A stretch of DNA of 64,000 bases from IMG/VR virus record IMGVR_UViG_3300012009_000259; one strand, 5' to 3'. How positions within the stretch are numbered: position 1 is the first letter of the stretch; every line of letters begins with the position of its first letter. The notes below the pieces were generated by a model. That model searched no databases. It was not told where the DNA came from and saw only the letters and a program-made list of their open reading frames with translations. Both the position numbers and the translations under genes were made by a program. The DNA is from an uncultured virus (IMG/VR IMGVR_UViG_3300012009_000259) (taxonomy: Duplodnaviria > Heunggongvirae > Uroviricota > Caudoviricetes). Shown piece by piece: positions 10,371 through 64,000 of this stretch.

Positions 10371-10459
10371 GTTGGGGGGATGGGGGGGTATTTCGGAAAG
10401 TAAAAAAGTTCGGAGTAAAAACTTTTCGACTTTCTGGAAATGCCCCCCATCCCCCCAAC
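10371..10459. repeat. dispersed G-rich palindrome, copy 2
   Basis: GTTGGGGGGATGGGGGGGTATTTCGGAAAGT...ACTTTCTGGAAATGCCCCCCATCCCCCCAAC. Confidence 0.95.
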
Positions 10460-10522
10460 TAAAAGTAGAGGATTCAGTAATGTATAATATGTAAACAACA
10501 AGCAAAGATATAGGGAGGAGAG

Positions 10523-40303: not shown

Positions 40304-41197
40304 TTATGTTCTTCGCTGAAGCCTATCCCCGCTTACTCTGATTTGACTGATGATAAAACTATCATCTTTGGGCTTCATCAAAAAGGCATACCCGCAGTAA
40401 TGAACCCCCACAGGCATAGACCTTCCTCTATCAATCTGATGCAATGTATCAACCGTCACAGGGCGATGACAATGTGGACATAGAAGTGTTGATCGAGGAA
40501 TCTCACACCTATCACTCTGCGGACACCTGTTGCATTCTGCTCCTTCGAGAGGTGGGGCAGGGGTATGAGGGGCAAGTCTAGCATATTCCTTAATTATTCT
40601 TGTGGCGGCTTTTACTCTATCCTGGGCTACATGTAGACTCACCTCTAGTATTTCAGCGGAGGCTCCACTGTCACCATACCTCATAACCACCAAGAATACT
40701 GGTTTTTTGACTAACATTGCGTATATGCTAGCTTGTAGTATTTCGTAAGCCTTTATCGACTGGTTATTGTTAGGGGTGCGATTTTTCAACTCGATTACTG
40801 CATCTGAGGTAATTCCGTCTACACGACCCCTAACCCCTATAGATGGCACAGACGGAAAGGAGTTCGATACAAACTCTTCTAACTTCATCCTTACGCCATG
40901 CTTCTCGGCCACTTTAGCAACTCTGGGCATAAGGCTGTTATGCGCACGAATACCAAAGGACATGCTCTTGTTGGGGGAAAAAGGGAACTTCGAGCCTACA
41001 CCCAAAGAACAGACCTTCGTAGATAATTTGCTTGAACTTGCTGTTATCCAGGCTATAGACGAAACTGAAAGGTGCTCCCCCCAGAACCTCCCTACCCGAT
41101 GCTTTTTTCCGCTTTTTCCTAGGGGCTTCAGACATGCCTTCCAATTCCACCCCTCAATTGCTTCCTCAAAAATGGTGGACAACTCTTTAGAGTCCAT
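40304..41197 (-). CDS. Cas4/RecB-like PD-(D/E)xK nuclease with a Cys cluster and an extra zinc ribbon
   Basis: FGIRAH, GRVDG..VIELK, QASIY, CNRCPQSDRC, CPHC..HYCG. Confidence 0.8.
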   Translation of the reverse strand: MDSKELSTIFEEAIEGWNWKACLKPLGKSGKKHRVGRFWGEHLSVSSIAWITASSSKLSTKVCSLGVGSKFPFSPNKSMSFGIRAHNSLMPRVAKVAEKHGVRMKLEEFVSNSFPSVPSIGVRGRVDGITSDAVIELKNRTPNNNQSIKAYEILQASIYAMLVKKPVFLVVMRYGDSGASAEILEVSLHVAQDRVKAATRIIKEYARLAPHTPAPPLEGAECNRCPQSDRCEIPRSTLLCPHCHRPVTVDTLHQIDRGRSMPVGVHYCGYAFLMKPKDDSFIISQIRVSGDRLQRRT

Positions 41198-41255: not shown

Positions 41256-41350
41256 TTAGTGGGGGGGATGGGGGGGTATTTTGGAAAGTATTTTAGTTGG
41301 GAGTAAAAACTTTTTTACTTTCTGGAAATGCCCCCCATCCCCCCCACTAA
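41256..41350. repeat. dispersed G-rich palindrome, copy 3
   Basis: TTAGTGGGGGGGATGGGGGGGTATTTTGGAAAGT...ACTTTCTGGAAATGCCCCCCATCCCCCCCACTAA. Confidence 0.95.
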
Positions 41351-41388: not shown

Positions 41389-41961
41389 CTATTGCCTACC
41401 TTTGACAGGCTTGTTTTTGGCATATAGAACATCTCCCCATGCCTCTATCTCAGCACCACCAACTTCCATAATTCCACCCCGCTGTCTTTCAAGTTGCTGT
41501 GTCATTTCGAATGGAGTACCGTTAAATTCAATCTCAAAACGCTGAAAGACCAACATAGCCCTAAGCCTGACTTCCTTGTGTGTAGAAGCGAGAACAAGCA
41601 TATCCCCCTCGTCGAACACCACGCCAACATTCCTACCGGCGTTTCCGAGAAGAATCTCACGGTTAGCATAACGGCATTTAATTGTGCGGCTCTTTGATGT
41701 GATTGTGAAATACCACATTGTAGGATATAGTTCGATTATGTGCTGCCCCACTTTGAAGGGTTGCCCCCCTAAGTCCTTGATTCCTATACCCCAGGGGTTT
41801 TCTGGCACCTTCTTGGTGATAATAGATGACAGAATAAGGGATATTCCAGGACGTGCTTCCACGACCTCTGGGGGCTTGAGTCCGTGTGCCATTATCATCT
41901 CTTGTCCTTTTAGGAGTATATAGCCCCTGCGTTCGCTTTTGTGTTGAAATACTATGTTCAT
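41389..41961 (-). CDS. hypothetical protein, paralog of 47586..48167
   Basis: Shared MNIVFQH..RRGYILLKGQEMI and QQLERQRGG.MEVGGA.IEAW.DVLYA. Confidence 0.85.
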   Translation of the reverse strand: MNIVFQHKSERRGYILLKGQEMIMAHGLKPPEVVEARPGISLILSSIITKKVPENPWGIGIKDLGGQPFKVGQHIIELYPTMWYFTITSKSRTIKCRYANREILLGNAGRNVGVVFDEGDMLVLASTHKEVRLRAMLVFQRFEIEFNGTPFEMTQQLERQRGGIMEVGGAEIEAWGDVLYAKNKPVKGRQ

Positions 41962-42035
41962 CTTTTACCTCCTTGGATAATAAGACCGATGTGTCTACGA
42001 CGTATTATACTGTCGTATAAAAGACCTGGCATGAC

Positions 42036-42130
42036 TTAGTGGGGGGGATGGGGGGGTATTTCAGAAAGTAAAAAAGTTTTTAGTCTGGACGAAAATACTT
42101 TCCAGAATACCCCCCCATCCCCCCAACTGA
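42036..42130. repeat. dispersed G-rich palindrome, copy 4 (inverted relative to copy 3)
   Basis: Reverse complement of its centre (ATTTTCGTCCAGACTAAAAACTTTTTT) matches the copy 3 centre (ATTTTAGTTGGGAGTAAAAACTTTTTT). Confidence 0.95.
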
Positions 42131-46186: not shown

Positions 46187-46255
46187 ATATTCTCCCGCTT
46201 CCGATATTGGTAAATCTGTCCTGTTCTACGCAGTTAGAGCATTGGCGAATAGAAG

Positions 46256-46340
46256 TTAGTTGGGGGATATTCTGGAAAAGTCGTTTAGGTCAGGCTTTAA
46301 ACTTTTCGACTTTCCACAAATACCCCCAATACCCCCAACT
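46256..46340. repeat. dispersed G-rich palindrome, copy 5 (left arm shortened)
   Basis: TTAGTTGGGGGATATTCTGGAAAAGT...ACTTTCCACAAATACCCCCAATACCCCCAACT. Confidence 0.9.
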
Positions 46341-46496
46341 CAAACGTCTATATGTTTTTCACCCCATCTTGTTCTCGCACTCACCAATCGCTACTGTTGG
46401 CCTGACAGCACTTCGCCCCACTACCTGCTAATATCACACACCTATTCGGTATGTGTCAGCCTCCTTCGGTCAAAGCCGAAGGTAGTTAATAGCGCG

Positions 46497-47084: not shown

Positions 47085-47101
47085 ACTGCCTCCCTTTTTT
47101 A

Positions 47102-47144
47102 AAGTGTAACGTCTATTTATGGTTTGTGAATAATCTAAGGCACA
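47102..47144 (+). repeat. 43-bp direct repeat, copy A
   Basis: AAGTGTAACGTCTATTTATGGTTTGTGAATAATCTAAGGCACA; 2 mismatches to 47553-47595. Confidence 0.9.
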
Positions 47145-47533
47145 AGATCGTTTGTGCCTATAACATATTGTGCTATTACTTCAAGATTTGTATGCAGCAG
47201 AAGAGTGGCATAAAAAAGTCAGAGACAATAGATTATATCGTCCCACACCCAGTGGGGAAGCACGCGATGCTCTGTCCACATCCTCTCTTCTTTATCTGTC
47301 ATATCGAGCGTGGCGACATACCATCCGTCGATGGATGGGCCGGTATCAAGAATAACTCCCCTGTCTATCTCGGCTATGAGTCGAGCGATGTGTTTTGCTT
47401 CCTGTTCTGTGGCAGCCTTGGCCAGTATATCACCATCCTGCCCAAGGGAGTAGAGATATTCTTCTTTCCAGATCATCCTGTGCCCCCAATTCCTCTTGAG
47501 GGCTTGCACTAATTTTTTATTTATGTTGGGCAT
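47135..47533 (-). pseudogene. gene with a premature TGA at 47219-47221
   Basis: Frame continues 27 codons past the TGA to ..GTNDLVP-TAG inside the direct repeat. Confidence 0.5.
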
Positions 47534-47552
47534 TGCTTCCCCCTTTTTGTGT

Positions 47553-47595
47553 AAGTGTAATGTCTATTTATAGTTTGTGAATAATCTAAGGCACA
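47553..47595 (+). repeat. 43-bp direct repeat, copy B
   Basis: AAGTGTAATGTCTATTTATAGTTTGTGAATAATCTAAGGCACA. Confidence 0.9.
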
Positions 47596-48167
47596 GGCCT
47601 GTTTGTGGCATATAGGACATCCTCCCATGCTTCTATCTTGGCCCCGCCGACTTCCATAACTCCACCCCGTTGTCTCTCAAGTTGTTGACGGAGTTGAAAC
47701 GGAGCCCCATCAAATTCAATATCAAAACGCTGGTAAACCAGTAGAGTTCTTAACTGAACTCTTTTGTGCGCATTGACAAAAACAAGCCCTCTTTTCTCAT
47801 TAAATACCTCACCGTTAGGCTCCCCTCCTGTCCGCAAAAGTTTCCCACGGTTGAAATAGTGGCACTGAGTCGTGCGATGTTTAGAGGAAATCATAAAACT
47901 TCTTCCCCTATCGTCTCCGTTTATCTTGACCCTTTTTTCTCTCACACGATACCAATGCCCTATTAAGTCCTTAAACCCTAATCCACAGGAGTTCTCTGGG
48001 ACTTTTCTGTCGAGGATACATGATAGCAAAAGAGAGTGTCCAGGGTTTGCTGTTATAACCTCTGAGGGCTTAAATCCGTGTGCTATTATCATCTCTTGCC
48101 CTTTTAATAGTATGTAACCTCTGCGTTTGCTTGCGTGCTGGAATACTATGTTCATATCTCTTCCCAT
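47586..48167 (-). CDS. hypothetical protein, paralog of 41389..41961
   Basis: Clear end-to-end similarity; upstream TGTGTCTACG..TATTATACTGT is also shared. Confidence 0.85.
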   Translation of the reverse strand: MGRDMNIVFQHASKRRGYILLKGQEMIIAHGFKPSEVITANPGHSLLLSCILDRKVPENSCGLGFKDLIGHWYRVREKRVKINGDDRGRSFMISSKHRTTQCHYFNRGKLLRTGGEPNGEVFNEKRGLVFVNAHKRVQLRTLLVYQRFDIEFDGAPFQLRQQLERQRGGVMEVGGAKIEAWEDVLYATNRPVP

Positions 48168-48364
48168 TTGTTGTGTCTACGCCATATTATACTGTTACAT
48201 AAATAGCCGTATACAGCAGGAGAGGGGGATAATAGTTGGGGCCGCCCCTCTCTATGTTTCCTGTGTGTCCCATGCGTTGTGCCCGATTCCACCCGCAACA
48301 CACCTGCTCATGTATAATATATCAACACCAACAGAAATAATCAGTTACAATAAAAAGGGGGCAG

Positions 48365-51896: not shown

Positions 51897-51992
51897 TTAG
51901 TTGGGGGGATGGGGGGGTATTTTAGAAAAGTCCTTCGACCTACATCCAAAACTTTTTTACTTTCCAAAATACCCCCCCATCCCCCCAACTAA
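51897..51992. repeat. dispersed G-rich palindrome, copy 6
   Basis: TTAGTTGGGGGGATGGGGGGGTATTTTAGAAAAGT...ACTTTCCAAAATACCCCCCCATCCCCCCAACTAA. Confidence 0.95.
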
Positions 51993-52055
51993 ACTTCTTC
52001 AGAAAAGAGTAAGTATGATTAAACAGCCAATACAAAAAGGAGTAGGAGGGTTAGG

Positions 52056-52568
52056 ATGAATAGAGCTCCAATTCATATTACAGAACAGGGCACTAACAGG
52101 CTGATTGCTAACATGCAGGTGATGAGATTAACAAGGCGAAGCAAGCCGTTCAAAGGGACATTGGGTTTAGCGCAATACCTAAGGGGGCACGAAGACCCAC
52201 GAGAGTATTTCCTCGCGTTCGCATATCTTGTACTAAACACTGAGCAATGGCAATTCCAGATATACACCCCCAGGGCAGTGCGCTATAGGATTATACCTTC
52301 TTCACCTAAGATGATCGACCGAATGACTAAGTTCATCAATACTCAAATCAACGCCTGGAAAAATGAACATAACACGGTACTCGTGGAGGCGTTGACTACT
52401 GGTGGCATAATCCTTATGCAACAGGTGGGTGGGGCTTCTGCGAATAAGGATAGAACCTGGGATGCTAAAGACATGCAAATCACCACTATTGAGAGTCCCA
52501 GTGGAAAAACTATCGCCAGGCTTGGGCACTATGAAATACAGTTGAGCCTGCCTATTCCTCCAAAGTGA
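52056..52568 (+). CDS. hypothetical protein flanked by palindromes 6 and 7
   Basis: 170 aa; AGGAGG RBS. Confidence 0.7.
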   Translation: MNRAPIHITEQGTNRLIANMQVMRLTRRSKPFKGTLGLAQYLRGHEDPREYFLAFAYLVLNTEQWQFQIYTPRAVRYRIIPSSPKMIDRMTKFINTQINAWKNEHNTVLVEALTTGGIILMQQVGGASANKDRTWDAKDMQITTIESPSGKTIARLGHYEIQLSLPIPPK

Positions 52569-52573
52569 TAACC

Positions 52574-52674
52574 TTTTTAGTTGGGGGTATGGGGGGGTAT
52601 TTTGGAAAAGTCCTCCAGCAAAACTTTTTCCCAAAGTACTTTTCTGAAAATACCCCCAACCCCCCCACTAAAAG
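52574..52674. repeat. dispersed G-rich palindrome, copy 7
   Basis: TTTTAGTTGGGGGTATGGGGGGGTATTTTGGAAAAGT...ACTTTTCTGAAAATACCCCCAACCCCCCCACTAAAA. Confidence 0.95.
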
Positions 52675-52814
52675 AAATATAAACCATGCCTTTTTACAAC
52701 TGGATACGCTATGCTCAGCATAACCCCTGTGTTTACCAAGCAGTATAATGCAGTGATAAGATAGGCGCAGAGACCCACAATCATGATGCTTGTTGTAGAG
52801 AGGAGAGGAGGAGT

Positions 52815-53972
52815 ATGTCCAAAGAGGTGTTCAAGAAGATACCTACAGTTGTTTTGATTTTATTGGGCGTCTTTGGTGTCTTGGGTTATTGTTCGGCTGT
52901 CTTCTTAACCAACCACATAGCAGATAGCAACACAGGAAACACGGCAACCCCTACCCGTACAGAGGCGGTAAGTTCATTGGGTATAGTAACAGATGCAAGT
53001 GCCACTCCAGTCATCTTTACGCCTACCTCTTCGCCCAACGCCTTGAAAACAAGTACCCCATTTGTCACTAGGACGCCATCAGCCACCGCAACTCAGACCC
53101 CTTACCCTACTGCAAGCCCTACCCCAACACCCACAGAAGCACATAAAGGAGAGCCTGCTGTAGTTATAGATGTTGTAGACGGTGATACAATTAAAGTCAT
53201 CATAGATAATCAGCAGTATACAGTCCGTTACATCGGGATAGATACTCCAGAAACCGTTCACCCCTCAAAGCCGGTAGAATGGATGGGGGCAGAAGCCTCG
53301 GCGCGTAACAAAGAACTGGTCAGCGGAAAGACTGTATATCTGGAAAGCGATGTCTCAAACACAGACAGATATGGGCGCTTATTGCGGTACATATTTCTGG
53401 CAGATGGGACATTTGTAAATAAGGTGCTGGTAGAAGAAGGCTACGCACACGCCTCGGAGTATCCTCCTGACACCAAGTACCAAGACGTATTGGAGCAATC
53501 TCAACGTGAAGCGATGGAGCAAGAGACAGGGCTTTGGTCTGAGAAGCCAGATCCAACCGCAACCGCAACTCATATTCCTACTGCAACCCCCACTGTTGTT
53601 CAGCCTACCGCAGAAACACCACCTTCAACTACTGCCCCTGTAACACCTGGAGAAGTCCAGATAACATATATCCTTGCCGATGGGGTTGTGTCTCGCGTAG
53701 AGAGCGATGAGTACGCTGTAGTAGAAAACATCGGCGGCGCTGAGGTGAGCATAGGAGGATTTAGGCTGAACGCGGGAGACCCAGGACAAGATTTCGTCTT
53801 CCCCGACTATGTGCTTCAGCCAGGACAGTCTTGTCGAGTCTACACTAACGAAATGCACCTCGAAACCTGTGGTTTTAGCTTTGGTATAGGTAAAGCAATT
53901 TGGAATAATTCAGGAGACTGTGGTTTCCTCTATAATCAACAAGGGGAGAAGGTATCAGAGTATTGCTATTAA
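52815..53972 (+). CDS. membrane-anchored thermonuclease (SNase) with a C-terminal lamin-tail domain
   Basis: TM, PT linker, VVDGDTI, VRYIGIDTPE, DRYGRLLRY; LTD: EYAVVENIG..FVFPDYVLQPG..IWNNSGD. Confidence 0.9.
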   Translation: MSKEVFKKIPTVVLILLGVFGVLGYCSAVFLTNHIADSNTGNTATPTRTEAVSSLGIVTDASATPVIFTPTSSPNALKTSTPFVTRTPSATATQTPYPTASPTPTPTEAHKGEPAVVIDVVDGDTIKVIIDNQQYTVRYIGIDTPETVHPSKPVEWMGAEASARNKELVSGKTVYLESDVSNTDRYGRLLRYIFLADGTFVNKVLVEEGYAHASEYPPDTKYQDVLEQSQREAMEQETGLWSEKPDPTATATHIPTATPTVVQPTAETPPSTTAPVTPGEVQITYILADGVVSRVESDEYAVVENIGGAEVSIGGFRLNAGDPGQDFVFPDYVLQPGQSCRVYTNEMHLETCGFSFGIGKAIWNNSGDCGFLYNQQGEKVSEYCY

Positions 53973-53984
53973 AGGAGGGTTTAC

Positions 53985-55079
53985 ATGTTTAGGAAAACGA
54001 TGCTGTCGCTCTTTCTCGTGTGTCTTTTGATAATCCCCAATGGAGTACTGGCAGAAACTGGGCCTGTTGAACTTGATTATTTTAATTGCGAAGACCCCTT
54101 CCCAAGCAGCAGTGCCCATGCTCTTGCTACCATAACTTCTTTCTCCTGTTGGGCAGATGACGCCTCCAAGGGGGCCATAGAATCTAGCCAGTTTGCTATC
54201 GCCCCCATAGACAGATCATTGGCATATATTGCGCGTGTACACAAAAACCCTGATGATGGTTACTGGCATATTGCTAGTGGCGAAAGCGACTCAGTTGTCT
54301 TTCATAGCCTTTGGGAGTCGAACATAGACTATGGGGAGGAGCTGTATATCCGAGTGCTTTCTGACCAGGAATTTACTGCATACTTTCTCCCACCTATTGC
54401 AGAGCATGAAGAAGGCAAGAAAGTCCCTTGTGAATATAAGTTGGGGGCTTATGACTACATATACAGGCTAGAGAAGTTGCAGCGACAACCCTCTGGCGTG
54501 TCAACTGTATACACTGTCGAATCTGATGGGTATTCTGACGCCAAGTACATGTATTGCGATTACAACGATACAGAGATTCATCTTGATAACACAGATGTGC
54601 CTGACACGATAGACTTATCAGACAAGGAAGAACTTGGCGAATTCCAAGGTTACGTAGCAATAGGGGCAGATACGCCCATTACTCCGACAATCATATCAGG
54701 CGAAGGGGAAATCCCTTCTTTTGTCTATCTACCATTGACACTGAAGCCCGCCCCACCCCTGCCCGACATACAGCTAACGTGCGGTGTTTCTAATGAGTCT
54801 CCCTATCAGCACCAAACGGTGTCCGTATGGAGTGATTTGAAGAATCACGACAATGGTATTTTTGGCGTCACAATGAATACCACTTGGAACTACAGAACAG
54901 TTACAAGTTATTGTAGCGGGGTCACCAATTCAAGTGGCAGGGCCACATGCTCGCGTAATATATCCGACGCAACCATAGGCTATGAAGTGTTGATAGATGT
55001 AGAAATGACTCTTGATGATACTGACTACTTATGTGTTACCTCTTTCACCCCAGAGAGTCGAGCGGTTTTACACAGGTGA
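53985..55079 (+). CDS. secreted protein with a Chloroflexota-type YLPL motif and an Ig-like C-terminus
   Basis: Signal VLA-E; FVYLPLTLK; GVTNSSGRAT. Confidence 0.7.
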   Translation: MFRKTMLSLFLVCLLIIPNGVLAETGPVELDYFNCEDPFPSSSAHALATITSFSCWADDASKGAIESSQFAIAPIDRSLAYIARVHKNPDDGYWHIASGESDSVVFHSLWESNIDYGEELYIRVLSDQEFTAYFLPPIAEHEEGKKVPCEYKLGAYDYIYRLEKLQRQPSGVSTVYTVESDGYSDAKYMYCDYNDTEIHLDNTDVPDTIDLSDKEELGEFQGYVAIGADTPITPTIISGEGEIPSFVYLPLTLKPAPPLPDIQLTCGVSNESPYQHQTVSVWSDLKNHDNGIFGVTMNTTWNYRTVTSYCSGVTNSSGRATCSRNISDATIGYEVLIDVEMTLDDTDYLCVTSFTPESRAVLHR

Positions 55080-55082
55080 GCC

Positions 55083-55499
55083 ATGACCCATAGAAAAGGT
55101 CTCAATTCTCGGTCAATCCTTAAGCCGGATGAGGTAAATCTATTAAGATGCAGGATTGCGAGATGCGCCCAAGACATATATGCGTATTACGAAAAGCACC
55201 CACCTGAAAACGGTGGGGGGATATGTGATGAGATAGCGAGCGGAATAGTAGATATTGTGTACAACTCTTTTGATGATGCTGATGCCCAAGTTGGGGGTTG
55301 GCCTGGGGATGACCATGCCCCCGTAATTGCTGTTATTAGGGGAGTTCCGTATCACATAGATATTCCCCCAGATGTGTACGAGGTAGGCGGCGGATACAAC
55401 TGGCGCGTTCTAGAGGGTGTGATTATAAGCCCCTCTTATGTTGTTATTCGTAGGCTACCACTTGAAACACTCAAACATATAACAATAGGAGGTTATTGA
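55083..55499 (+). CDS. hypothetical protein (possible Cys-His-Asp transglutaminase-like triad)
   Basis: GGICDEIA, DDHA, YHIDIP. Confidence 0.55.
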   Translation: MTHRKGLNSRSILKPDEVNLLRCRIARCAQDIYAYYEKHPPENGGGICDEIASGIVDIVYNSFDDADAQVGGWPGDDHAPVIAVIRGVPYHIDIPPDVYEVGGGYNWRVLEGVIISPSYVVIRRLPLETLKHITIGGY

Positions 55500-55999
55500 T
55501 GCAAGTTAAAGAACTATCAGTCTTTAGGTCTATCGCTGATCTGCCTCGTGCTGGCGTGGCAGCATACGGTACTATACGTTTGCGTCTAGGAGAGCCTGAG
55601 CCTGCAACCATTTTCGTCGGCAATGAAGAGGTTGGCATCATCCTGAAGGATTCCTCTGATAGCGAACAAAATGCCCATATTAGGGTTAAGGTGCTGGCTG
55701 CGGGAGGTGATGTTATCCAGATGGCTTATGCGGCTCGCGGCAAAGCGTGTCTGCTTGGGGGCACCAAGTACAAAATGATCACAAAGAGAAGGGGCTCTCA
55801 TACTGTCATTATTCGTTTTATAGACCTACAGGATGAGGGAGAGTTCGCTGATGTCAGAGTATCGAGCACGATTTTTGACACCCCTGGAACCCCAAGACTC
55901 TTAATGGGGAGTGTAGTGTACTTGAGGATGCTTGAAAAAAAGGAGAAGATAAGGCTCGTAGGGCGCGAAGGGGAATACCCTAGGTATGTCTTACACTGA
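55496..55999 (+). CDS. hypothetical protein
   Basis: 167 aa; AGGAGG RBS. Confidence 0.6.
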   Translation: MMQVKELSVFRSIADLPRAGVAAYGTIRLRLGEPEPATIFVGNEEVGIILKDSSDSEQNAHIRVKVLAAGGDVIQMAYAARGKACLLGGTKYKMITKRRGSHTVIIRFIDLQDEGEFADVRVSSTIFDTPGTPRLLMGSVVYLRMLEKKEKIRLVGREGEYPRYVLH

Positions 56000-58600
56000 T
56001 TCACTATTAACGACTTCAATCCCCACATCGGGGGAGTAGCGTATAGAATACTTACCCCCCTCTTCAATCTCGCACACACCATGTTCAAAGATGAGGGGCT
56101 TAAAATAGCGCAAGGTGGGGTGGCGCTCCCATTTCTTTGGTGTGGAAACATTCTCCATCAGGCTTACAACCTCATTATGCCTGATGGAGACTTCGTTTCT
56201 CAGAAGACTTAGCACTTTTCTTTCTGAAAGAGGGGCTTCTGCGTTATATGGGTGATCCCCTTTTTGGTCTAGGTATATCTTCCCTCCTATCCTATGCAGA
56301 CAAATGGCCCGAACAGACTTTATAGCGTAGCGTGTGCTAAACCTTTGCTGCTTGTCCTCTGGACTTCGATACGGAAAAGACGATTCGTGGGGCAGAGCAA
56401 TGAGCGTCTCCGCAGCTTTCGCCCTTAATTGCCTTCTCCTGCTTCGCATTTTATTATAGCTGCTTACCCAGTACGCCCTCAGATTATCGTTAATGGATAA
56501 GTCCTTTGGTGGGGTAGGCATCTCATCGTATACATACTTCATAAGCCCTGGGGTGTCATCTGGTATAATTATCGACCTCCTTGATCTCATAATCAAGTAG
56601 GTTTTTAACAGCAGATGAGCATTGTATACGTGTACGTCCTGCCCGAAGGATATACCCCCGCTCTGAAAAGATTCTGGGTGTACGATATGAATTGTGGGGG
56701 TAGCAAATACTGAGGGTCGATCATTGGCGTGTCGATGGAGTCTCCCCATTCGCTGTATTAAGGTATCAATCGGGGGTACCTGAGTTATCATCGTATCTAC
56801 CGAGAAGTCTAAACTTTGTTCTGCTACTTGCGTTGCTATGAGGATAGCTCTCTTGGGCCTATTTGATGTGTCGTTCCCAAGAAGTCTTAGCACTCTCTTC
56901 TCCTTCTTCTGTCTTTTTCCTGACGGTAGTTTGGCGTGAAGCAGGATAATTTCGGGTATTTTGTCTCCATACATAGAAACTACTTTGCGGTAAGTGCTTT
57001 GTGCTGCCCTAACCGTATTACATATAACTGCTGCACACCCCCCATACTTAACTATGTCTCCGCATACATCGTATACACATTTGCTACTATCCTCCCACTC
57101 AATCTTTATGGTCTGCTTGCTCTCAACAGGTAAGGGGATAGAAACCATCTCTGTACTATTAGCGTAGGTAATCGCGGGATAGGATAACATCTCCCTTTCG
57201 GAGAGGTCAACTTTTCTACCTGTATATGAGTAGAGAATATGTCTCTTGATTGAAGGGGGTAGCGTTGCAGTCAAGATCACTACGGAAGACTCCATAGCCC
57301 TTAGCCAGCGCAATAGCCGGTAAAAGAGTGAATCCATATAGATGTCGTAAGCATGGACTTCATCACAGATCAATGTCTTTCGGAAAATGCCCCACATCCT
57401 AAGAAAGAAGTCAGCGCCTCGCATTGCGCCCTTCAACACTTGGTCGATTGTCCCTACCCCAATGGGGGAGAGTAGATTCTTTGCCCTCTTCTGGAACCAA
57501 TCATCCCCATCTTCGGGGCCTAAGTAGATTCTAGCCCGACTATGTGATAAGGTGCATGGGGTATCAGAACCTTTGTCAGACAATATCCTTTTCACTCTCT
57601 CAAACATCGCGTTAGCAGTGGACATGGTAGGCATAGCAATAAACCAACCCTGTTGCTGCTCTGTATATGCCCAATAGTTCGACAGGAAAATGCCCGCTTC
57701 TGTTTTGCCGCCTCCTGTGCGCTCCTCTATTATGACTATAGAAGGCTGTTCTATCTGCTTGATGTCGTTCTGCGCAACCCTCTGAGTAGGTCGTAGCGTT
57801 TCAAACTCAAATAACTCCCTAAACTCTATAGGCAGATCAGAAGATGACCACTTATCCCAACCCAATTTTTTCAAACTAGTCTTGGCCTGTTGACTCGCCT
57901 GGATGTAGTATTGTTCATAATTGGTGATCCTGCCTGTGTAGGGAAAGAAGTCTTCCTGGGAACCCACGACATCTGAAACAGCAACAAAACCTGCTATCAG
58001 AGCCAATGCTGAATTATGACGCTCTTCGAGCCACTCTGTCGGGTAATGCTCTGGCGGAAGAAATATGTTACGAAGTATAACCCCGATCTCACATCTCACA
58101 TCCCACCATTCTTGACTGCCTATTTGGTTTTCGGGTATCTCGTTAGCCTGTCTCTCTGTAGCCCAGACACCATGATGTGCTCCTACCGCATAAGACACAT
58201 CAAAGGACAGTTCCAAGGGGATGTTGCCAGTTGTTTCGGCAAGTAGCAGGGGGGCTACTCTCGCGGTGGCAACCCCGTGACGATAAGACTCTTCTGAATC
58301 TACGTCCAAGAAGGGAAGCCCCTGTTTTCTAATCTTTGGGGCCATAAAGGGAAGACGAACCTGGAACGCGGGGGTTGCTTTACCTATGTCGTGAATTGAG
58401 GCCCAAAAGGAGAGAGCGCGTCGGGCCTCTTGGGGGGCCATACTCAAACTATCCGCAAGGTACTTCCTGGTACTCTGCGTAAGAGCTATATCCCAGAGTT
58501 GTTCTGCAACAGCTCCTACGTCTATTAAGTGTGCCACAAGCGGGTGGAAGGTCTTTGTAGATGTCTCCCCCTTCCCCCACAGATCATATATCGCATTCAT
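55991..58600 (-). CDS. cas3: CRISPR-associated helicase/HD nuclease Cas3 (type I-E-like), orphan
   Basis: WGK..HPLVAHLID, HDIGKATPAFQ, AHHG, TGGGKTE, GTIDQ, DEVHAYD, TATLP, TQVAEQSLD, QRMGRLHRH. Confidence 0.95.
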   Translation of the reverse strand: MNAIYDLWGKGETSTKTFHPLVAHLIDVGAVAEQLWDIALTQSTRKYLADSLSMAPQEARRALSFWASIHDIGKATPAFQVRLPFMAPKIRKQGLPFLDVDSEESYRHGVATARVAPLLLAETTGNIPLELSFDVSYAVGAHHGVWATERQANEIPENQIGSQEWWDVRCEIGVILRNIFLPPEHYPTEWLEERHNSALALIAGFVAVSDVVGSQEDFFPYTGRITNYEQYYIQASQQAKTSLKKLGWDKWSSSDLPIEFRELFEFETLRPTQRVAQNDIKQIEQPSIVIIEERTGGGKTEAGIFLSNYWAYTEQQQGWFIAMPTMSTANAMFERVKRILSDKGSDTPCTLSHSRARIYLGPEDGDDWFQKRAKNLLSPIGVGTIDQVLKGAMRGADFFLRMWGIFRKTLICDEVHAYDIYMDSLFYRLLRWLRAMESSVVILTATLPPSIKRHILYSYTGRKVDLSEREMLSYPAITYANSTEMVSIPLPVESKQTIKIEWEDSSKCVYDVCGDIVKYGGCAAVICNTVRAAQSTYRKVVSMYGDKIPEIILLHAKLPSGKRQKKEKRVLRLLGNDTSNRPKRAILIATQVAEQSLDFSVDTMITQVPPIDTLIQRMGRLHRHANDRPSVFATPTIHIVHPESFQSGGISFGQDVHVYNAHLLLKTYLIMRSRRSIIIPDDTPGLMKYVYDEMPTPPKDLSINDNLRAYWVSSYNKMRSRRRQLRAKAAETLIALPHESSFPYRSPEDKQQRFSTRYAIKSVRAICLHRIGGKIYLDQKGDHPYNAEAPLSERKVLSLLRNEVSIRHNEVVSLMENVSTPKKWERHPTLRYFKPLIFEHGVCEIEEGGKYSIRYSPDVGIEVVNSESV

Positions 58601-58623
58601 GTTTTCCCTTTTGAGTCCTTCAG

Positions 58624-58687
58624 ACGGGTGGTAAGTAATGCAACCTTACCACCCGTTGTGAAGGAGGATGCCAGTCATAGACTGGCA
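58624..58687. promoter_or_regulatory. two perfect hairpins upstream of cas3
   Basis: ACGGGTGGTAAG/CTTACCACCCGT (12 bp) and TGCCAGTC/GACTGGCA (8 bp). Confidence 0.6.
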
Positions 58688-58718
58688 CCACTTTTCGTTG
58701 TGCTTTTGCACAACTAAC

Positions 58719-59606
58719 TCAAACGGCGACACCTCCCCCCTCTGCAAACTCCTGAACATAGGAGTATAATTCAGGTGTCTTGGTGAGGTCGCCATTACGC
58801 AGGCTATCCCACGCCACACGCCCCCTTTTTTTCGTTATGGGGTCAGGTTGCGAGATACTCACGCTCATTACGCGGGACGTTATCACAATCGCAACCTTGT
58901 CTTTTGTGGGGGGGGGAACTTGGCGCCATGACTGGTTTGTAAACGTAAAAAGAACTAAATCCCTAGCTATGGTCATCTCTCCATATTGCTGTCTCCCATC
59001 CCCCCACATCACTCTATTATCGCTTTGTCGCTTTAAGGTTCTAGAGTTCCTTACCACCTGGGCAAAAAGCTCTGGGTCGATGCGGTTTATTACTTGTCGT
59101 AGACCCTTAACCTGTGTGATATACCTTACGTTTTTTGCGGGTTGAATAGGCTCATCCACAGAGACAGGAGGGGGCCTCTCGTCTTTTCGGGGTGGCGGCG
59201 GTTCAGGCATTGGAACACTCCTCTTCTTGGCTTTATCTGTTGGTTGTAGCAAGGCAAAGATTGCCCCTTGCCTATCCCCGTTTGCAAGGTTTTTACGTGC
59301 ATCGGAAAAACGGTTAAATAGGGCCTTTATGCCCCCCTCATCACGCAAAATACCAGAAGACAAAGCCAGGCCTGCACTCGCCCCTAATAGTCCCACACTT
59401 GACACACTAGTAAGTGTTGATGCGACACTAGGGGATTTTACGAGAAGAGATGCCGCCCTGCCAGAGACGAAGGCAAGCCCCCCCAAACCAGTAGCCAGCA
59501 TACCCGCTGCTATACCAAGCATGTTTAGCCCCACCCCTGCTTTTACCCAGGACAGCAACATCTGGACATCTTTACGCTTCTTGTTGTCTTGCGGTTCCAT
59601 CCTCAT
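58719..59606 (-). CDS. membrane-associated hypothetical protein
   Basis: Gly/Ala-rich hydrophobic N-terminus, Pro-rich linker. Confidence 0.65.
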   Translation of the reverse strand: MRMEPQDNKKRKDVQMLLSWVKAGVGLNMLGIAAGMLATGLGGLAFVSGRAASLLVKSPSVASTLTSVSSVGLLGASAGLALSSGILRDEGGIKALFNRFSDARKNLANGDRQGAIFALLQPTDKAKKRSVPMPEPPPPRKDERPPPVSVDEPIQPAKNVRYITQVKGLRQVINRIDPELFAQVVRNSRTLKRQSDNRVMWGDGRQQYGEMTIARDLVLFTFTNQSWRQVPPPTKDKVAIVITSRVMSVSISQPDPITKKRGRVAWDSLRNGDLTKTPELYSYVQEFAEGGGVAV

Positions 59607-59871
59607 GTCTGATAGCCTTCTTATATGCTTGAGCCTGTATTTCGTTATGGCGCAGGTTGAAATATGAGAAAGAAAAGATTGCTAATAAGACAGATGGTAG
59701 AAATACTATGCCATAGCACCTGTCTACAGATACGGTCAACCAAAGCGAAACTAGTATCAACACAAGACTAATAGCAACAAGCGCCATTAGCATCATTGTC
59801 TCTCTGATAATACTATCTGAAGATTTAGCACTCTCTTCTGCCACCAAATTCAGTAGTTCCTTTTTATCCAC
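59572..59871 (-). CDS. 2-TM membrane protein
   Basis: Two hydrophobic helices. Confidence 0.6.
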   Translation of the reverse strand: MDKKELLNLVAEESAKSSDSIIRETMMLMALVAISLVLILVSLWLTVSVDRCYGIVFLPSVLLAIFSFSYFNLRHNEIQAQAYKKAIRHEDGTARQQEA

Positions 59872-59888
59872 ATCTTCTCCCCTATATT

Positions 59889-60140
59889 CTATACTTTAGG
59901 CCGTATTCTTCCGGCCTTTACTGCGGCAATCACGTCATTTATGCTAAACAGGTAGAAACCTTTCCCATTGCCCACTTTTATACTTGACAGCCTTCCGTCT
60001 GCTGCTGCTAAGCATATACAGGAGCGGGTTAATTTCAAGGCCTTCACAAGGTCGGATGTTGTCATGCGCTGCGGGTCTTCAGCGACCTGGTTTAGAGAAC
60101 TCTCCACACGATCTACTATGCCTTCTTTCGCTATGTCCAT
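59889..60140 (-). CDS. excisionase/MerR-like HTH DNA-binding protein
   Basis: MTTSDLVKALKLTRSCI..AADGRLSSIKVG..YLFSINDV. Confidence 0.7.
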   Translation of the reverse strand: MDIAKEGIVDRVESSLNQVAEDPQRMTTSDLVKALKLTRSCICLAAADGRLSSIKVGNGKGFYLFSINDVIAAVKAGRIRPKV

Positions 60141-60190
60141 AATAAAGTCTGCCCCCTTAATTGAGTGTACGAAACCACGACACAAGGCAA

Positions 60191-60219
60191 ACACCCATCG
60201 GCAGACATGGCAGTATAAT
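60191..60219 (+). promoter_or_regulatory. element-type promoter ACACCC-N17-TATAAT
   Basis: Exact motif upstream of the resolvase-like/primase pair. Confidence 0.75.
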
Positions 60220-60251
60220 AAGGCGTACTCATTCATAGATAAGGAGACGAC

Positions 60252-60722
60252 ATGAAAATCACACCCACACAAGCGGAGGAAATAGTAGCGACACTTTTTC
60301 AAGAGATTCCAGGCTTCGGGGAAACAGCCCTCACCTTCGGGTCTGGCTCTTTCGCGGGGGACGGAGATATGGTAAACGACCAACACACCCCTGTTTCAGT
60401 AAAGAAGACCACAACAGATCGTATCACTGTGAAAGCGTCATCCGAGATTCGGATGGCAGAGAAGGCGGGGCGTGAATGGTTGTTTGTGGGAGTTTTTACC
60501 GATGTCCTTGATTCTGATGACGCTATCGCTGTTATCTACATGATGACAATGGATGGCGCTGATGAAGAGGGTAAACAAACCTACTCCCTTCCCTATCCAC
60601 CCCCTAATACGATTGAAGAGGTGGCAGGAGGGGCAAAAATCCAGGGGGGACTAATTGGCGTTTACTTAATCCACTCCATGACAGAATTTGAGCCCCTGGG
60701 GGAGGGGACAGACTGGCCGTGA
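60252..60722 (+). CDS. possible Hjc-like PD-(D/E)xK-fold protein
   Basis: AEE..GSG..GDGD..VSVKKTT..ITV; the ExK Glu is replaced by Ser. Confidence 0.4.
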   Translation: MKITPTQAEEIVATLFQEIPGFGETALTFGSGSFAGDGDMVNDQHTPVSVKKTTTDRITVKASSEIRMAEKAGREWLFVGVFTDVLDSDDAIAVIYMMTMDGADEEGKQTYSLPYPPPNTIEEVAGGAKIQGGLIGVYLIHSMTEFEPLGEGTDWP

Positions 60723-61675
60723 GCGGTATCGACTGGACGAAACTGAGGGACTATCCTCATCTTGACCCGAAGGTCACCTCGAAAGGGAACCTTAAGGTGC
60801 GCTGTCCTTTCCATTCTGACAGAACCCCCTCGGCGGTCATTTTTCCAACAGGCTACTTTTATTGCTTCGGCTGCGAGACAGAGGGTTTCATACCGAAGCA
60901 AATAGCCGAAAAGATACTAGGGGGAGAGATTGCTTCTACAGGCACCTATGTTAAGGAGCAATTCCCTAGCGTAGATGTCGTAGAAGAACAGTCATTAGTA
61001 GTGCAAAAGGCTATACGATCTCATACTGGCGAAAGCCTGCTGGTAAGGTCTTTTGCCACAAAGAAGCACTTACCAGTGGATGTCGTTCGTACCTCTACGT
61101 TCCCAACACGGCAAGGGTTACTCATGCCTGCGTTCTGTTGGGCATGGGGGGACGAGCGATTCGACCCAGAAATACCTCCATACGCTGAGCATGATTATCC
61201 ATACCCCTTATATGTATGTGGAGCGCAGTATAGAATTAAAGACGCCCTAGCCGAAGACCCCGAATTGAAAGCCATAACACACGGCTTTAGGGGGTTTGGT
61301 ATGCCTGGGTTGCAATATAGACCCCGTTGGGCATGGGATGGCAAAGTGGCTGCCAAAAGTCGCTACATTATTGTAACAGAGGGGCCACAGCACGCCTATA
61401 AGTTCGCTGTGGCTTTAGAGGGCAAAGCACTTGCTCTATGTACCTTTGGAGGCAGCATATCGGGGTGGCAAGAGAAGGCAATCGAGTCTTTATCCCCAGA
61501 CTGCCTTCTTGTCGTTCAAGACTCTGACAAGTGGAGAGACTCTGACAAGCCAGAAAACAAGGCTATTATGAGAGAAGACCACGGATTAGAGGTAAATCTG
61601 TATCTTGACGCAGACCTGATTTCTCCCTTGGGCCTGCGGCGAGTTTTACAAAGTCTTGAGATTCCAACTCCTTAA
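60719..61675 (+). CDS. CHC2 zinc finger + TOPRIM DnaG-like primase
   Basis: CPFHSDRTPS..FYCFGC; IIVTEG; VVQDSD. Confidence 0.8.
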   Translation: MSGIDWTKLRDYPHLDPKVTSKGNLKVRCPFHSDRTPSAVIFPTGYFYCFGCETEGFIPKQIAEKILGGEIASTGTYVKEQFPSVDVVEEQSLVVQKAIRSHTGESLLVRSFATKKHLPVDVVRTSTFPTRQGLLMPAFCWAWGDERFDPEIPPYAEHDYPYPLYVCGAQYRIKDALAEDPELKAITHGFRGFGMPGLQYRPRWAWDGKVAAKSRYIIVTEGPQHAYKFAVALEGKALALCTFGGSISGWQEKAIESLSPDCLLVVQDSDKWRDSDKPENKAIMREDHGLEVNLYLDADLISPLGLRRVLQSLEIPTP

Positions 61676-62069
61676 CCCACCCCCGATAACAGGCGGCTGC
61701 CTTATCAAAGGTCTCTTTATCCTCAGACTTGGGGCTTTGTATCTTTAACACACCTGGTGGGGGGAGAGTTGTGCGCGGGAGGTTTTCGTACTGCCACGCA
61801 ATCAGCCACGGGCCATGAAGAACAAACCTCATGTCCCCCTTCAGGTTCAGCACATAACGTAGCCACTGAACCAGGGCTTCTATTTCCATGTAGAAGGGGG
61901 ACTTCTCTGCCATTTCTCCATCGCCCTTAGTTCTCTCAAAGGTGAAAAGAGTGGTGCTATCAATGGGATTCCTTTTTCCCCTTTGATAAGCTGGCACAAC
62001 CGCTGTTAAGTCTATATTCTTCCTACCGTTTTCAACATACGCAATTCCCTGCAATTCGATCACTTGCAT
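61566..62069 (-). CDS. hypothetical protein
   Basis: AAGGAG RBS; convergent overlap with the primase gene. Confidence 0.55.
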   Translation of the reverse strand: MQVIELQGIAYVENGRKNIDLTAVVPAYQRGKRNPIDSTTLFTFERTKGDGEMAEKSPFYMEIEALVQWLRYVLNLKGDMRFVLHGPWLIAWQYENLPRTTLPPPGVLKIQSPKSEDKETFDKAAACYRGWVKELESQDFVKLAAGPREKSGLRQDTDLPLIRGLLS

Positions 62070-62082
62070 CTTGATCTCCTTA

Positions 62083-63555
62083 TTATGGCAAATAGCAATC
62101 TTCTGGCATGGCCCTTTCGTGACTACTGCACAACGCCGATGGGTAGATAGAGTTTACCTCCCATGCGTCGGCACAAATCTCAAGTCCTGGTGGGCACTCC
62201 GAAGGGTAGATAGGGTCGTCTGACACAATGCTTCCCATTGTGGCCGAGAAGAAGTTGTAAGGTATACACCCACCACCGTCCCCGCTAGTGTAGTCCTCAC
62301 AATAGAGGTCATATAAGTCCATCCACGCAATCATCATGTCCCTATATGTCTTGGCCCCTTCAGGGTCAGAATACCCACCCCCACAGGCGCTTGCGAACAC
62401 GTCAGGAGATGGCCCTGTCTCAGTCATCACAAAAAACCTCATATCATACCCGATGCTTCTCCCATTCTCGTCTTGCGCACCCTGAAATGCGTCTTGGATA
62501 TGTGCCCTGAGTTGCGTGCTTTTGGCAACCACATCCTCCACATTCTGCATTAGTGGCCCTGTTTGGGGGCCATCGCATAGTGCGTCAATACCTTCCGCGC
62601 TATACATGTGGATGGTAACGATGGGTGTCAGAATAGGAGGGAGTACTTCCAAATCACCTGGCCCACCAACTGCCTCATCCCAGGCATTAAGGCGGTTCTC
62701 CATGAAGTATCTGACGAATCCGTCATAGTACTCAATCTCCTCATCCATGCTTGGCCCAAATGATATAATCGGGGGGACTACTAGCTTATAGTCTGGGGTT
62801 TTATATGTATCGTTGCTGGCGTCTATCTCGTAGATTGTGTTTAGCAGGTTAAGCAGCTCACTTGCTGCATATCTGCCCATGTGGTGATGGCCTGTCATCC
62901 CATCCCCCCACCCTGGAAAAATCTCCTCTATAATGCCGCTTGGGGGGGTTATGAGAGCAGTACTACCGCCTAGGCAGGCATCTCTATTTGACGATGTAAT
63001 GAATTCTATCTCAGAAGGGACTACGGTTGACATGTCCCAGTCCTGACAAGCATTCACCTCGTTAAGGGGCTGGAATATCTCAACCCCGTAATTTTTGTAA
63101 AGATAGTCCATAGCGTTTGCTACAGGCTCCCAACCTCCACCACTCAAGTTCTGGTGAAAATGCACATTAAACCTGACAATGACCTCCATCCCCAACCCAG
63201 TAGACAGGCTGATTATCTGTCCGAGAAGTGGATGATCATAGTCATTCGGCTCTATAAATATCAAAAGTGACTCGTAACCATGTGACGCCAGATCGCTAAC
63301 AATTTGAAGGCTACGCTCTTCGTGCCACCCGCTTACCCCAGGGTGGATATTAAAGTGAGCACCCTTCAGGTCGCTTCTGCGGCTTGAGCCGGTATCCATA
63401 ACATAAACTGGTGGCCCACCCTCTAGGTGAATAGTGCCAATATCAGTCTCACTTGCTTCAATATGTGCGTCTGTAGTAGACGCAAAGATATACACTGCTA
63501 TCAAAAATAGCAGCGATAAGGTTAATGTCTCTTTCCTGTTTTTCTTCTTGAACAT
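62083..63555 (-). CDS. secreted clan GH-A-like glycoside hydrolase
   Basis: Signal peptide; VIVRF, PLNEVN (acid/base), TIHMY, VMTETG (nucleophile). Confidence 0.6.
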   Translation of the reverse strand: MFKKKNRKETLTLSLLFLIAVYIFASTTDAHIEASETDIGTIHLEGGPPVYVMDTGSSRRSDLKGAHFNIHPGVSGWHEERSLQIVSDLASHGYESLLIFIEPNDYDHPLLGQIISLSTGLGMEVIVRFNVHFHQNLSGGGWEPVANAMDYLYKNYGVEIFQPLNEVNACQDWDMSTVVPSEIEFITSSNRDACLGGSTALITPPSGIIEEIFPGWGDGMTGHHHMGRYAASELLNLLNTIYEIDASNDTYKTPDYKLVVPPIISFGPSMDEEIEYYDGFVRYFMENRLNAWDEAVGGPGDLEVLPPILTPIVTIHMYSAEGIDALCDGPQTGPLMQNVEDVVAKSTQLRAHIQDAFQGAQDENGRSIGYDMRFFVMTETGPSPDVFASACGGGYSDPEGAKTYRDMMIAWMDLYDLYCEDYTSGDGGGCIPYNFFSATMGSIVSDDPIYPSECPPGLEICADAWEVNSIYPSALCSSHERAMPEDCYLP

Positions 63556-63571
63556 ATTTCCTCCCTGTGTC

Positions 63572-63600
63572 ATTATAGGGCGTAAGCTATTATAAGGTGT
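63572..63600 (-). promoter_or_regulatory. element-type promoter ACACCT-N17-TATAAT
   Basis: Exact motif on the minus strand. Confidence 0.7.
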
Positions 63601-63679
63601 CGGAATATCAGCAATTTGCGCATGTTCGCGTTTAGTAGACTATGGTGAAGGAGTAATCTATCAGTGAGGAGGATTTCGG

Positions 63680-64000
63680 ATGTGGCAAGGAAACAAAGTT
63701 ATACTAGTGGGGTCAGGTGAAAGGGATAGCCTGGAAGCAGTAGTTGACCAAAAGGTAAAGGTACTATCTTTCATACGCGCACTAAACAATAAAGGCGTCG
63801 ATGAAGATGCTATCTACTTCATCGGTGGGAACATAGCAGAGAAGCAGGCGATCTCCAGGGCTGCCGCTGAATCGTCCCACTTCCCAGTCTCGATTTGGGT
63901 CTGCCTAAACGACGAGGATAGACAGGTTAGGGGTCTCATGGAGGAGGGTAAGGTATTGCCGCTTGGGATTATACAGGTGCCACCTATTAACCTGAGACGG
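63680..64000 (+). CDS. partial hypothetical protein (runs off the window)
   Basis: GAGGAGG RBS; open frame MWQGNKVILVG... to the window end. Confidence 0.6.
   Translation, partial: MWQGNKVILVGSGERDSLEAVVDQKVKVLSFIRALNNKGVDEDAIYFIGGNIAEKQAISRAAAESSHFPVSIWVCLNDEDRQVRGLMEEGKVLPLGIIQVPPINLRR

Follow-up and report, generated by a model that had tools for sequence, protein, structure and literature searches.

A complete type I-E Cas3 is encoded as a solitary gene on DNA recorded in IMG/VR as that of an uncultured virus of the Caudoviricetes (IMGVR_UViG_3300012009_000259). The window referred to throughout is the whole stretch of 64,000 nucleotides that was analysed, and within it the cas3 gene stands alone. 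The protein has an HD nuclease domain, a superfamily 2 (SF2) helicase and a C-terminal domain, its catalytic motifs are intact, and it looks catalytically competent. The gene has long been resident on its carrier. The predicted single-stranded DNA (ssDNA) channel between the motor and the nuclease differs from that of every relative compared. As a mechanism we tentatively prefer one in which the protein would act in trans to shred DNA for type I-E interference, with Cascade and guides encoded elsewhere.

The Cas3 protein

The gene and the domains of its product are located as follows.

55991..58600, minus strand: cas3 (P0001), an 869-amino-acid full-length type I-E-like Cas3, by Pfam, NCBIfam and PADLOC profiles, alignment to 4q2c and an AlphaFold2 model
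57944..58579, minus strand: HD nuclease domain of Cas3, amino acids 8-219 (PF18019, 1.9e-38); metal ligands H24, D27, H70, D71, H108, H142, H143 and D210 present
56600..57799, minus strand: SF2 helicase core of Cas3, amino acids 268-667 (TIGR01587 cas3_core, 1.6e-60; 4q2c alignment)
56018..56326, minus strand: C-terminal domain of Cas3, amino acids 759-861 (PF18395, 27.2 bits against a cut-off of 27; full-length TM match to 4q2c/4q2d)

A sequence-only reading of this DNA had described an 869-amino-acid Cas3 with all HD nuclease and SF2 helicase motifs, and profiles, alignments and a structural model bear this out. Pfam matches are to Cas3_HD (1.9e-38), Cas3-like_C_2 (3.8e-34), DEAD, Helicase_C and Cas3_C, the last of these barely at its cut-off (27.2 bits, cut-off 27). 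The NCBIfam models cas3_core (TIGR01587) and cas3_HD (TIGR01596) are matched well above threshold, with 205 bits against 102.45 and 75 bits against 43.45, respectively; the match to the I-E equivalog PRK09694, at 323.5 bits, is under its cut-off of 569. The top PADLOC model is Cas3e (PDLC01767, 2.7e-165, 549.6 bits), which is far ahead of the Cas3b, c, g and f models.

The helicase motifs comprise a Walker A sequence, GxGKT, at residues 296-300 (G296-T300), DEVH at 413-416, TAT at 444-446 and QRMGRLHR at 616-623 (QRxGRxxR). These positions come from alignments. Residues H70, D71, D210, K299, D413, E414, H416, R620 and R623 are identical in 374/374 relatives, and H24, D27, H108, H142 and H143 are invariant in family alignments. 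At motif III the window Cas3 has TAT, whereas most relatives have SAT (T in 19/374).

An AlphaFold2 model built from an alignment of 52 sequences has a pLDDT of 89.8 and a pTM of 0.91. Superposition of the whole chain gives TM scores of 0.88-0.89 on Thermobaculum terrenum Cas3 (4q2c/4q2d) and 0.82-0.86 on Thermobifida fusca Cas3, and the best solved relative by phmmer is the T. terrenum protein 4q2c (E 3.8e-124). The order of domains, HD, RecA1, RecA2, linker and C-terminal domain, and the catalytic motifs are common to the window Cas3, T. terrenum Cas3 (4Q2C/4Q2D) and T. fusca Cas3 (4QQW; with Cascade, 6C66). The window protein differs from these two in being only 24-31% identical and about 80 amino acids shorter, and in having no adjoining Cascade operon.

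Absence of Cascade, adaptation genes and arrays

The gene had been called an orphan in the sequence-only reading, with no cas8e, cas11, cas7, cas5 or cas6, no Cas1/2 and no array near it, and within the 64 kb window PADLOC, hidden Markov model (HMM) and repeat scans are in agreement. The window represents about one third of a carrier contig that is up to 189,846 bp long, and the solitude of cas3 holds for the 56 kb that follow the gene and the 5.4 kb that precede it.

At E<=0.01 no PADLOC model of Cascade or Cas1/2 matches any of the 97 open reading frames (ORFs) of the window besides Cas3. Other cas-like PADLOC matches are a weak Cas4-like PD-(D/E)XK nuclease (40304..41197), 15 kb from cas3, and a generic DEDDh exonuclease. 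From the closest metagenomic loci, lineage-specific HMMs were also built for Cas8e, Cas11e, Cas7e, Cas5e, Cas6e, Cas1e and WYL and run with filters off. Over 1166 six-frame segments of the window, a search that covers diverged or broken genes, they found nothing better than E 0.2.

No CRISPR array was found in the window by Tandem Repeats Finder, k-mer chains, a dispersed-repeat search or Rfam, CRISPR repeat families included. Degenerate repeat pairs at a spacing of 52-75 nt number zero in the window and zero in each of three shuffles.

Relatives and descent

The closest relatives of the window Cas3 are 36-39% identical, as found by a word-indexed search and an exhaustive HMMER pass (1.84 billion representatives); the latter gave 10,880 matches at E<=0.001. 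The best match, P0003, is an 841-amino-acid singleton that is 37-38% identical and lies on a contig of up to 91,593 bp. P0003 is intact and has kept the HD metal ligands. The top matches from named genomes are from Chloroflexota (Anaerolineales, Caldilineales and Chloroflexia).

In a FastTree phylogeny of 142 Cas3e sequences, from which three rows whose longest ORF was not Cas3 were left out, the window Cas3 falls in a starred set of 49 rows. The named phyla in this set are Chloroflexota (17), Planctomycetota (1) and Bacillota (1). Under an IQ-TREE mixture model with 43 rows, the window Cas3 and P0003 are sisters (SH-aLRT 99), with a stem of 0.86 and tips of 1.43 and 1.63, and the pair is nested in a starred clade of 27 rows; a phylum is named for 14 of these (13 Chloroflexota, 1 Bacillota). 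Both members of the pair are long branches, and the sister grouping carries a risk of long-branch attraction. However, the two proteins have in common the rare states L390K, S444T, V588I and D600S, and Trp at position 211 is missing from these two alone among 375 sequences.

Nine metagenomic loci are closest to that of the window (L001-L006, L008, L040 and L069). All nine have type I-E Cascade genes directly after cas3; in eight of them the gene that follows is cas8e, whereas L040 gave a match for Cas11e alone. Each of the nine also has a WYL domain, either as an N-terminal fusion to Cas3 or encoded just upstream, and fused forms of about 1220 amino acids are common among the relatives. Arrays with a 28-29-nt repeat are present in 46 of 161 related loci. 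These Chloroflexota WYL-Cas3 I-E loci are the nearest kin of the window gene, with 35-39% identity over aligned columns and all of the Cas3e type. The window differs from them in having no WYL domain, Cascade genes or array. By its sequence relationships, the window Cas3 is a descendant of I-E systems of Chloroflexota, and the host of the carrier is probably a member of this phylum.

Among IMG/VR viral contigs no relatives were found of the window Cas3, of P0003 or of the D5 primase-helicase encoded in the window, and a search of one collection of metagenome contigs with the Cas3 also found none. The nearest Cas3 proteins in phage and plasmid collections are only 27-31% identical. The D5 protein also provides no link between carriers: its best foreign match, at 51%, is on a 2.6-kb contig, and it has none on the 91,593-bp contig that bears P0003.

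Two apparent parallels were rejected. The best full-length phage match not on a chromosome is a 20.7-kb record labelled 'UNVERIFIED: Bacteriophage sp.' (MT835722.1; L161). It is ruled out as an orphan cas3 by its adjoining ORFs and array: cas3 is followed by seven ORFs sized like those of an I-E operon (judged by size only), and there is an array of 18 repeats. The record looks like a bacterial or prophage-flank fragment. The 'orphan Cas3' of Mycobacterium (PMC10333696) comes from a false-positive annotation and has no bearing here.

Residence on the carrier and selection

The base composition of cas3 is that of its surroundings. GC content is 0.470 and GC at third codon positions (GC3) is 0.487, compared with 0.474 +/- 0.022 and 0.488 +/- 0.041 for the genes of the window, and the codon-usage distance of 0.104 is below that of all seven other long genes in the window. 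Nine related cas3 genes that were compared have a GC content of 0.50-0.65. Since composition and codon usage match those of the carrier, cas3 is an old resident and not a recent capture.

Conserved columns of the family are retained in a graded manner. The window Cas3 has the family consensus residue at 117 of 135 columns in the class conserved at 90% or more, at 56 of 102 in the 70-90% class, at 67 of 146 in the 50-70% class and at 87 of 465 below 50%. Of 153 columns with at least 80% conservation in 141 relatives, it keeps 131, against a median of 144 for the other sequences and 125-133 for the lowest full-length proteins. Relaxed selection, which would have spoken against a functional orphan, was looked for by this proxy and not found, every catalytic residue being kept. 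Because retention follows column conservation, purifying selection on a working Cas3 is indicated, not decay.

These properties also bear on the possibility that the gene is a leftover of a lost CRISPR-Cas locus with no present function. In its favour are the isolation of cas3, the longest branch of the family and the change of 18 of the 135 columns that are at least 90% conserved, but this explanation is very improbable, as the 869-codon frame is intact with every catalytic residue kept, graded retention is the opposite of uniform decay, the match in composition to the carrier implies that the frame stayed open through a long residence, and the sister P0003 is intact as well.

The ssDNA gate

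In E. coli Cas3 a pair of tryptophans, Trp-230 and Trp-406, lies at the HD-RecA1 interface beside the ssDNA tunnel, and Trp-406 gates the nuclease site (He et al., 2021; PMC8001533). Mutant W406A is a hyperactive nuclease that is independent of Cascade, while W230A has lower nuclease activity and binds fork DNA more poorly. According to the legend of Figure 3 of the same paper, residues that line the Trp-406 pocket in the closed state include Lys-412, Lys-435 and His-436.

The corresponding positions of the window Cas3 were mapped onto E. coli K-12 Cas3 (b2761) and counted over the 374 relatives. Two stretches of the gene encode the altered residues.

57968..57970, minus strand: codon of V211, at the position of E. 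coli Trp-230, the partner of the Trp-406 gate; W in 373/374 relatives and L in P0003
57410..57484, minus strand: stretch with three changed gate/channel residues, A373, A396 and D397 (alignment to E. coli Cas3 and 374 relatives)

The gate residue itself, W368 (E. coli Trp-406), is kept in the window Cas3 and is W in 374/374. A373 corresponds to Lys-412 of motif Ic, which is K in 363 and R in 11 of the 374 relatives. At A396, equivalent to Lys-435, 346 relatives have a basic residue (R in 220/374, K in 126/374). D397 stands at the position of His-436, where H is found in 363/374 and D in none. Four residues of the gate region, W, K, K/R and H, have thus become V, A, A and D, and the catalytic centres on either side are untouched.

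Homology with the E. coli protein is full-length, at 29% identity. The two differ at Trp-230, Lys-412, Lys-435 and His-436, where the window protein has V, A, A and D, and also in gene context: E. coli cas3 adjoins casABCDE, whereas the window cas3 does not. The conserved Trp, basic and His channel residues of the T. terrenum and T. fusca proteins are likewise missing from the window Cas3. In P0003, Trp-230 is replaced by L and the basic residue at 435 by P; Lys-412 and His-436 are retained. The gate changes could make the transfer of ssDNA to the nuclease less effective, or could take away a point of control.

Possible functions

The sequence-only reading had offered hijacking of host Cascade, guides encoded elsewhere and exaptation as candidate roles. 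In the mechanism that is preferred here, the window Cas3 would be recruited in trans, through Cas8e, to an R-loop formed by Cascade. The partner Cascade would be encoded on the remaining two thirds of the contig or would be the host's own I-E Cascade, and the element would turn Cas3 against competing elements or against the host. Dependence on Cascade and the nature of the target are presumed. Cas3 is not a stable subunit of Cascade and is recruited in trans (reviewed in PMC7074321). The I-E C-terminal domain raises the affinity of binding to Cascade, according to earlier work cited in PMC11417383, and Cas proteins of the host may be used by huge phages whose own CRISPR systems are partial (Al-Shayeb et al., 2020; PMC7162821). 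This mechanism is put first because the full architecture with the C-terminal domain is kept, because the constraint pattern of the family is kept, and because Cas3 is naturally recruited in trans. The preference is a tentative one, and recruitment in trans is to be regarded as possible rather than probable.

Several observations weigh against it. Neither the 56 kb downstream of the gene nor the 5.4 kb upstream of it shows a trace of Cascade, Cas1, WYL or an array, and Cascade genes adjoin cas3 in 9/9 of the nearest relatives, unlike in the window. The closeness to the best match, P0003, is weak, and the window Cas3 has the longest terminal branch of the 142 Cas3e sequences (1.52, against a median of 0.53, in FastTree). 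Finally, W211V, K373A, D397 (H in relatives) and D600S are found at invariant or near-invariant positions, and because such positions have been replaced, a shift of function or regulation is suggested.

A second explanation is exaptation to a role independent of Cascade, which is somewhat unlikely. Cas3 would here be a guide-free ssDNA nuclease-translocase that shreds nicked or R-looped host DNA for nucleotide recycling, or that processes R-loops or forks in replication of the element, and the rebuilt gate would uncouple the nuclease from Cascade. This fits the solitude of cas3 in 64 kb and the kinds of genes around it, which include those for a CHC2 primase-like and an SNase-type protein (2 kb away each) and, within the window, a D5 primase-helicase, a DEDDh exonuclease, ThyX and a PD-(D/E)XK nuclease. 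It also fits the preservation of catalytic sites while the equivalents of E. coli W230, K412, K435 and H436 have changed. There are precedents in E. coli, where the single gate change W406A yields a hyperactive, Cascade-independent Cas3 (PMC8001533) and where Cas3 drives ColE1 replication without Cascade (PMC7074321). However, the gate tryptophan equivalent to W406 (W368) is kept in the window Cas3, and the residue that has been lost is the equivalent of W230, whose replacement in E. coli lowers activity and DNA binding and does not lead to hyperactivity (PMC8001533). The protein has also kept its C-terminal domain and most of the conserved positions outside the catalytic sites. An unrestrained Cas3 would, moreover, require some safeguard for the DNA of the element itself, and none is seen. 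That the whole lineage of the window Cas3 and P0003 has been freed from Cascade control through replacement of the Trp-230 equivalent and of three basic or His gate residues, to become a naturally 'ungated', guide-free Cas3 that shreds host DNA or processes R-loops, is unlikely.

A third explanation is that the protein is a Cas-derived anti-CRISPR, with the Cas3 of the element competing with host Cas3 for Cascade (Cas8e) or otherwise disturbing the CRISPR immunity of the host. Inhibition of CRISPR immunity was shown for AcrVIA2 and AcrVIA2.1, which are Cas3 homologs, and formation of defective Cascades for homologs of Cas5 and Cas8b (Katz et al., bioRxiv 10.1101/2023.06.24.545427). Likely hosts commonly have I-E systems. 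Loss of the W230 equivalent would suit a blocking decoy, as W230A weakens the nuclease and DNA binding of the E. coli protein (PMC8001533). Yet the HD domain and all metal ligands are conserved in both the window Cas3 and P0003, and a passive decoy needs neither. AcrVIA2 and AcrVIA2.1, as Katz et al. describe them, have no HD domain and show only about 24% identity to the I-B Cas3 helicase core. Moreover, once docked on a Cascade directed against the element, an active Cas3 would destroy its own carrier, and no known anti-defence gene is recognizable near cas3. A role as an anti-CRISPR is therefore quite unlikely.

Neighbouring genes and the upstream spacer

The genes and the spacer that border cas3 are as follows.

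58601..58718, minus strand: spacer of 118 nt upstream of cas3, with three strong hairpins
58719..59606, minus strand: 295-amino-acid ORFan with one hydrophobic segment (19-mer) and a Pro-rich linker, upstream of cas3
59572..59871, minus strand: 99-amino-acid protein with two hydrophobic segments (19-mers), upstream of cas3
59889..60386, minus strand: ORF of 165 amino acids as listed, with a likely true start near 60140 that gives 83 amino acids; no family match
55496..55999, plus strand: convergent 167-amino-acid ORFan that overlaps the cas3 stop by 9 nt (ORF listing)

The spacer has a highly stable predicted fold. The minimum free energy of 58595-58730 (minus strand) is -66.5 kcal/mol, with a z-score of -9.4, and none of 200 shuffles is equally stable. 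The spacer matches no Rfam family, and no second copy was found in the window. Its hairpins may be terminators of the upstream genes, or the spacer may be a leader.

The 295-amino-acid ORFan may be co-transcribed with cas3. It gave no usable match in a protein-atlas search. Two membrane proteins had been proposed to lie beside cas3, and this is supported by the single hydrophobic 19-mer of this protein and the two of the 99-amino-acid protein. A helix-turn-helix protein proposed at 59889..60386 did not find support: there is no family match, and the label rests on reading of the sequence by eye. The convergent ORFan at 55496..55999 belongs to no family, and its predicted model (pLDDT 30.9) has no usable fold. 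A relaxed Pfam scan of 11 neighbours of cas3 revealed nothing except a CHC2 zinc finger.

This zinc finger is in a 318-amino-acid protein encoded 2 kb upstream of cas3, at 60719-61675 (plus strand). The match is to the DnaG-type CHC2 zinc finger only (PF01807, 1.9e-07); the C-terminal half is Toprim-like by eye only. On the other side, 2 kb downstream of cas3 at 52815-53972 (plus strand), is the gene for a secreted or membrane-anchored protein with a staphylococcal nuclease (SNase) and a lamin-tail domain (LTD). It matches the PADLOC model PDLC01096 'C3a212' (SNc+LTD, a candidate CRISPR-linked gene) at 4.1e-51, a match that may reflect domain architecture only.

The carrier element

The carrier is probably a large mobile element or virus that is rich in ORFans. 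About 9 of the 97 ORFs in the window match a family. They encode a methyltransferase, an HHH + P-loop ATPase, a D5-type primase-helicase (phrog_6088, 2e-98), a DEDDh exonuclease, a double-length ThyX, a PD-(D/E)XK nuclease, the secreted SNase and lamin-tail nuclease, Cas3 and the CHC2 zinc-finger protein. Neither tRNA nor housekeeping genes were found in the window, and its GC content is even (0.445-0.52). The proposal that cas3 lies on element-like DNA is supported by this paucity of family matches, by the D5, DEDDh and ThyX genes and by the lack of tRNA and housekeeping genes. No capsid, portal, terminase or conjugation genes were recognized in the window, and the genes of phage type are confined to replication functions. 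In phage-family and PADLOC scans no known anti-defence gene was recognizable near cas3.

A single Logan contig of 24,324 nt spans positions 51957-64000 with no differences, and therefore cas3 is contiguous with both of its flanks. The contig is found in three runs from one microbial-mat sample, which is perhaps the source itself, and its support for contiguity is not independent. There are no RNA datasets among the runs listed as containing DNA of the window.

A family of palindromes of about 92 nt is present in intergenic regions in six copies, at 10371-10462, 41259-41350, 42039-42130, 46251-46342, 51901-51992 and 52580-52671. The palindromes have G-rich arms of about 35 nt and a variable centre of 20-25 nt. 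As the arms are inverted and the copies dispersed, the family is not CRISPR-like. The palindromes may be bidirectional terminators or element-specific REP-like repeats. At 51948-51994, where one copy is located, several Logan contigs of equal depth start or stop, and this copy breaks the assembly graph. The contig ends point to further copies outside the window.

Other features of the window include the ThyX-like protein, encoded at 37934-39463 (minus strand). At 509 amino acids it is about twice the usual size, and it has two matched stretches (PF02511, 4e-24; phrog_36506, 1.9e-40). It is conceivable that this protein modifies nucleotides in the DNA of the element. Two ORFans of about 190 amino acids, at 41389-41961 and 47586-48167 (both minus strand), are paralogous, with 73-75% nucleotide identity. 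Upstream of them are repeated segments, 41990-42021 / 48172-48203 and 47095-47156 / 47546-47607 (repeat families D2, D3, D4 and D9). The ORFan at 18741-22127 (minus strand) encodes 1128 amino acids and has no phage match; its sole lead is a weak language-model likeness (0.87) to adhesin repeat proteins of the GEVED/SdrD type.

Relation to known solitary cas genes and significance

Solitary viral cas genes are already known. Katz et al. (bioRxiv 10.1101/2023.06.24.545427) describe 358 orphan viral cas genes, among which the Cas3-like AcrVIA2 and AcrVIA2.1 that were tested have no HD nuclease domain. The window cas3 resembles these solitary genes, as their report presents them, in that within the window no array or cas operon lies close to it and in its distance of more than 1 kb from the sequence ends; its carrier is a putative mobile or viral genome. 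It differs from AcrVIA2 and AcrVIA2.1, which have about 24% identity to the I-B helicase core, in that its product has all the domains of an I-E Cas3, an intact HD site included, and in that no anti-defence neighbours were recognized. An incomplete set of CRISPR-Cas genes on a large element is also a property of huge phages (Al-Shayeb et al., 2020; PMC7162821). Phages described in that work have arrays and effectors without Cas1, Cas2 or Cas4, or have a helicase that replaces Cas3; in the window the situation is reversed, with Cas3 only.

No literature was found on a complete I-E Cas3 alone on an element like that of the window, or on natural loss of the Trp-230 equivalent; the table of 358 genes of Katz et al., which was outside this search, may list such cases.

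The solitary viral cas genes that have been tested act as anti-CRISPRs, and here a complete Cas3 has long been kept alone on a large element. If the Cascade of the host or a distant Cascade is used, the window would provide an example of an element that supplies only the nuclease of an interference pathway. If the protein is independent of Cascade, it would be a natural model of Cas3 licensing, and tools for long-range genome deletion might draw deregulated Cas3 variants from it.

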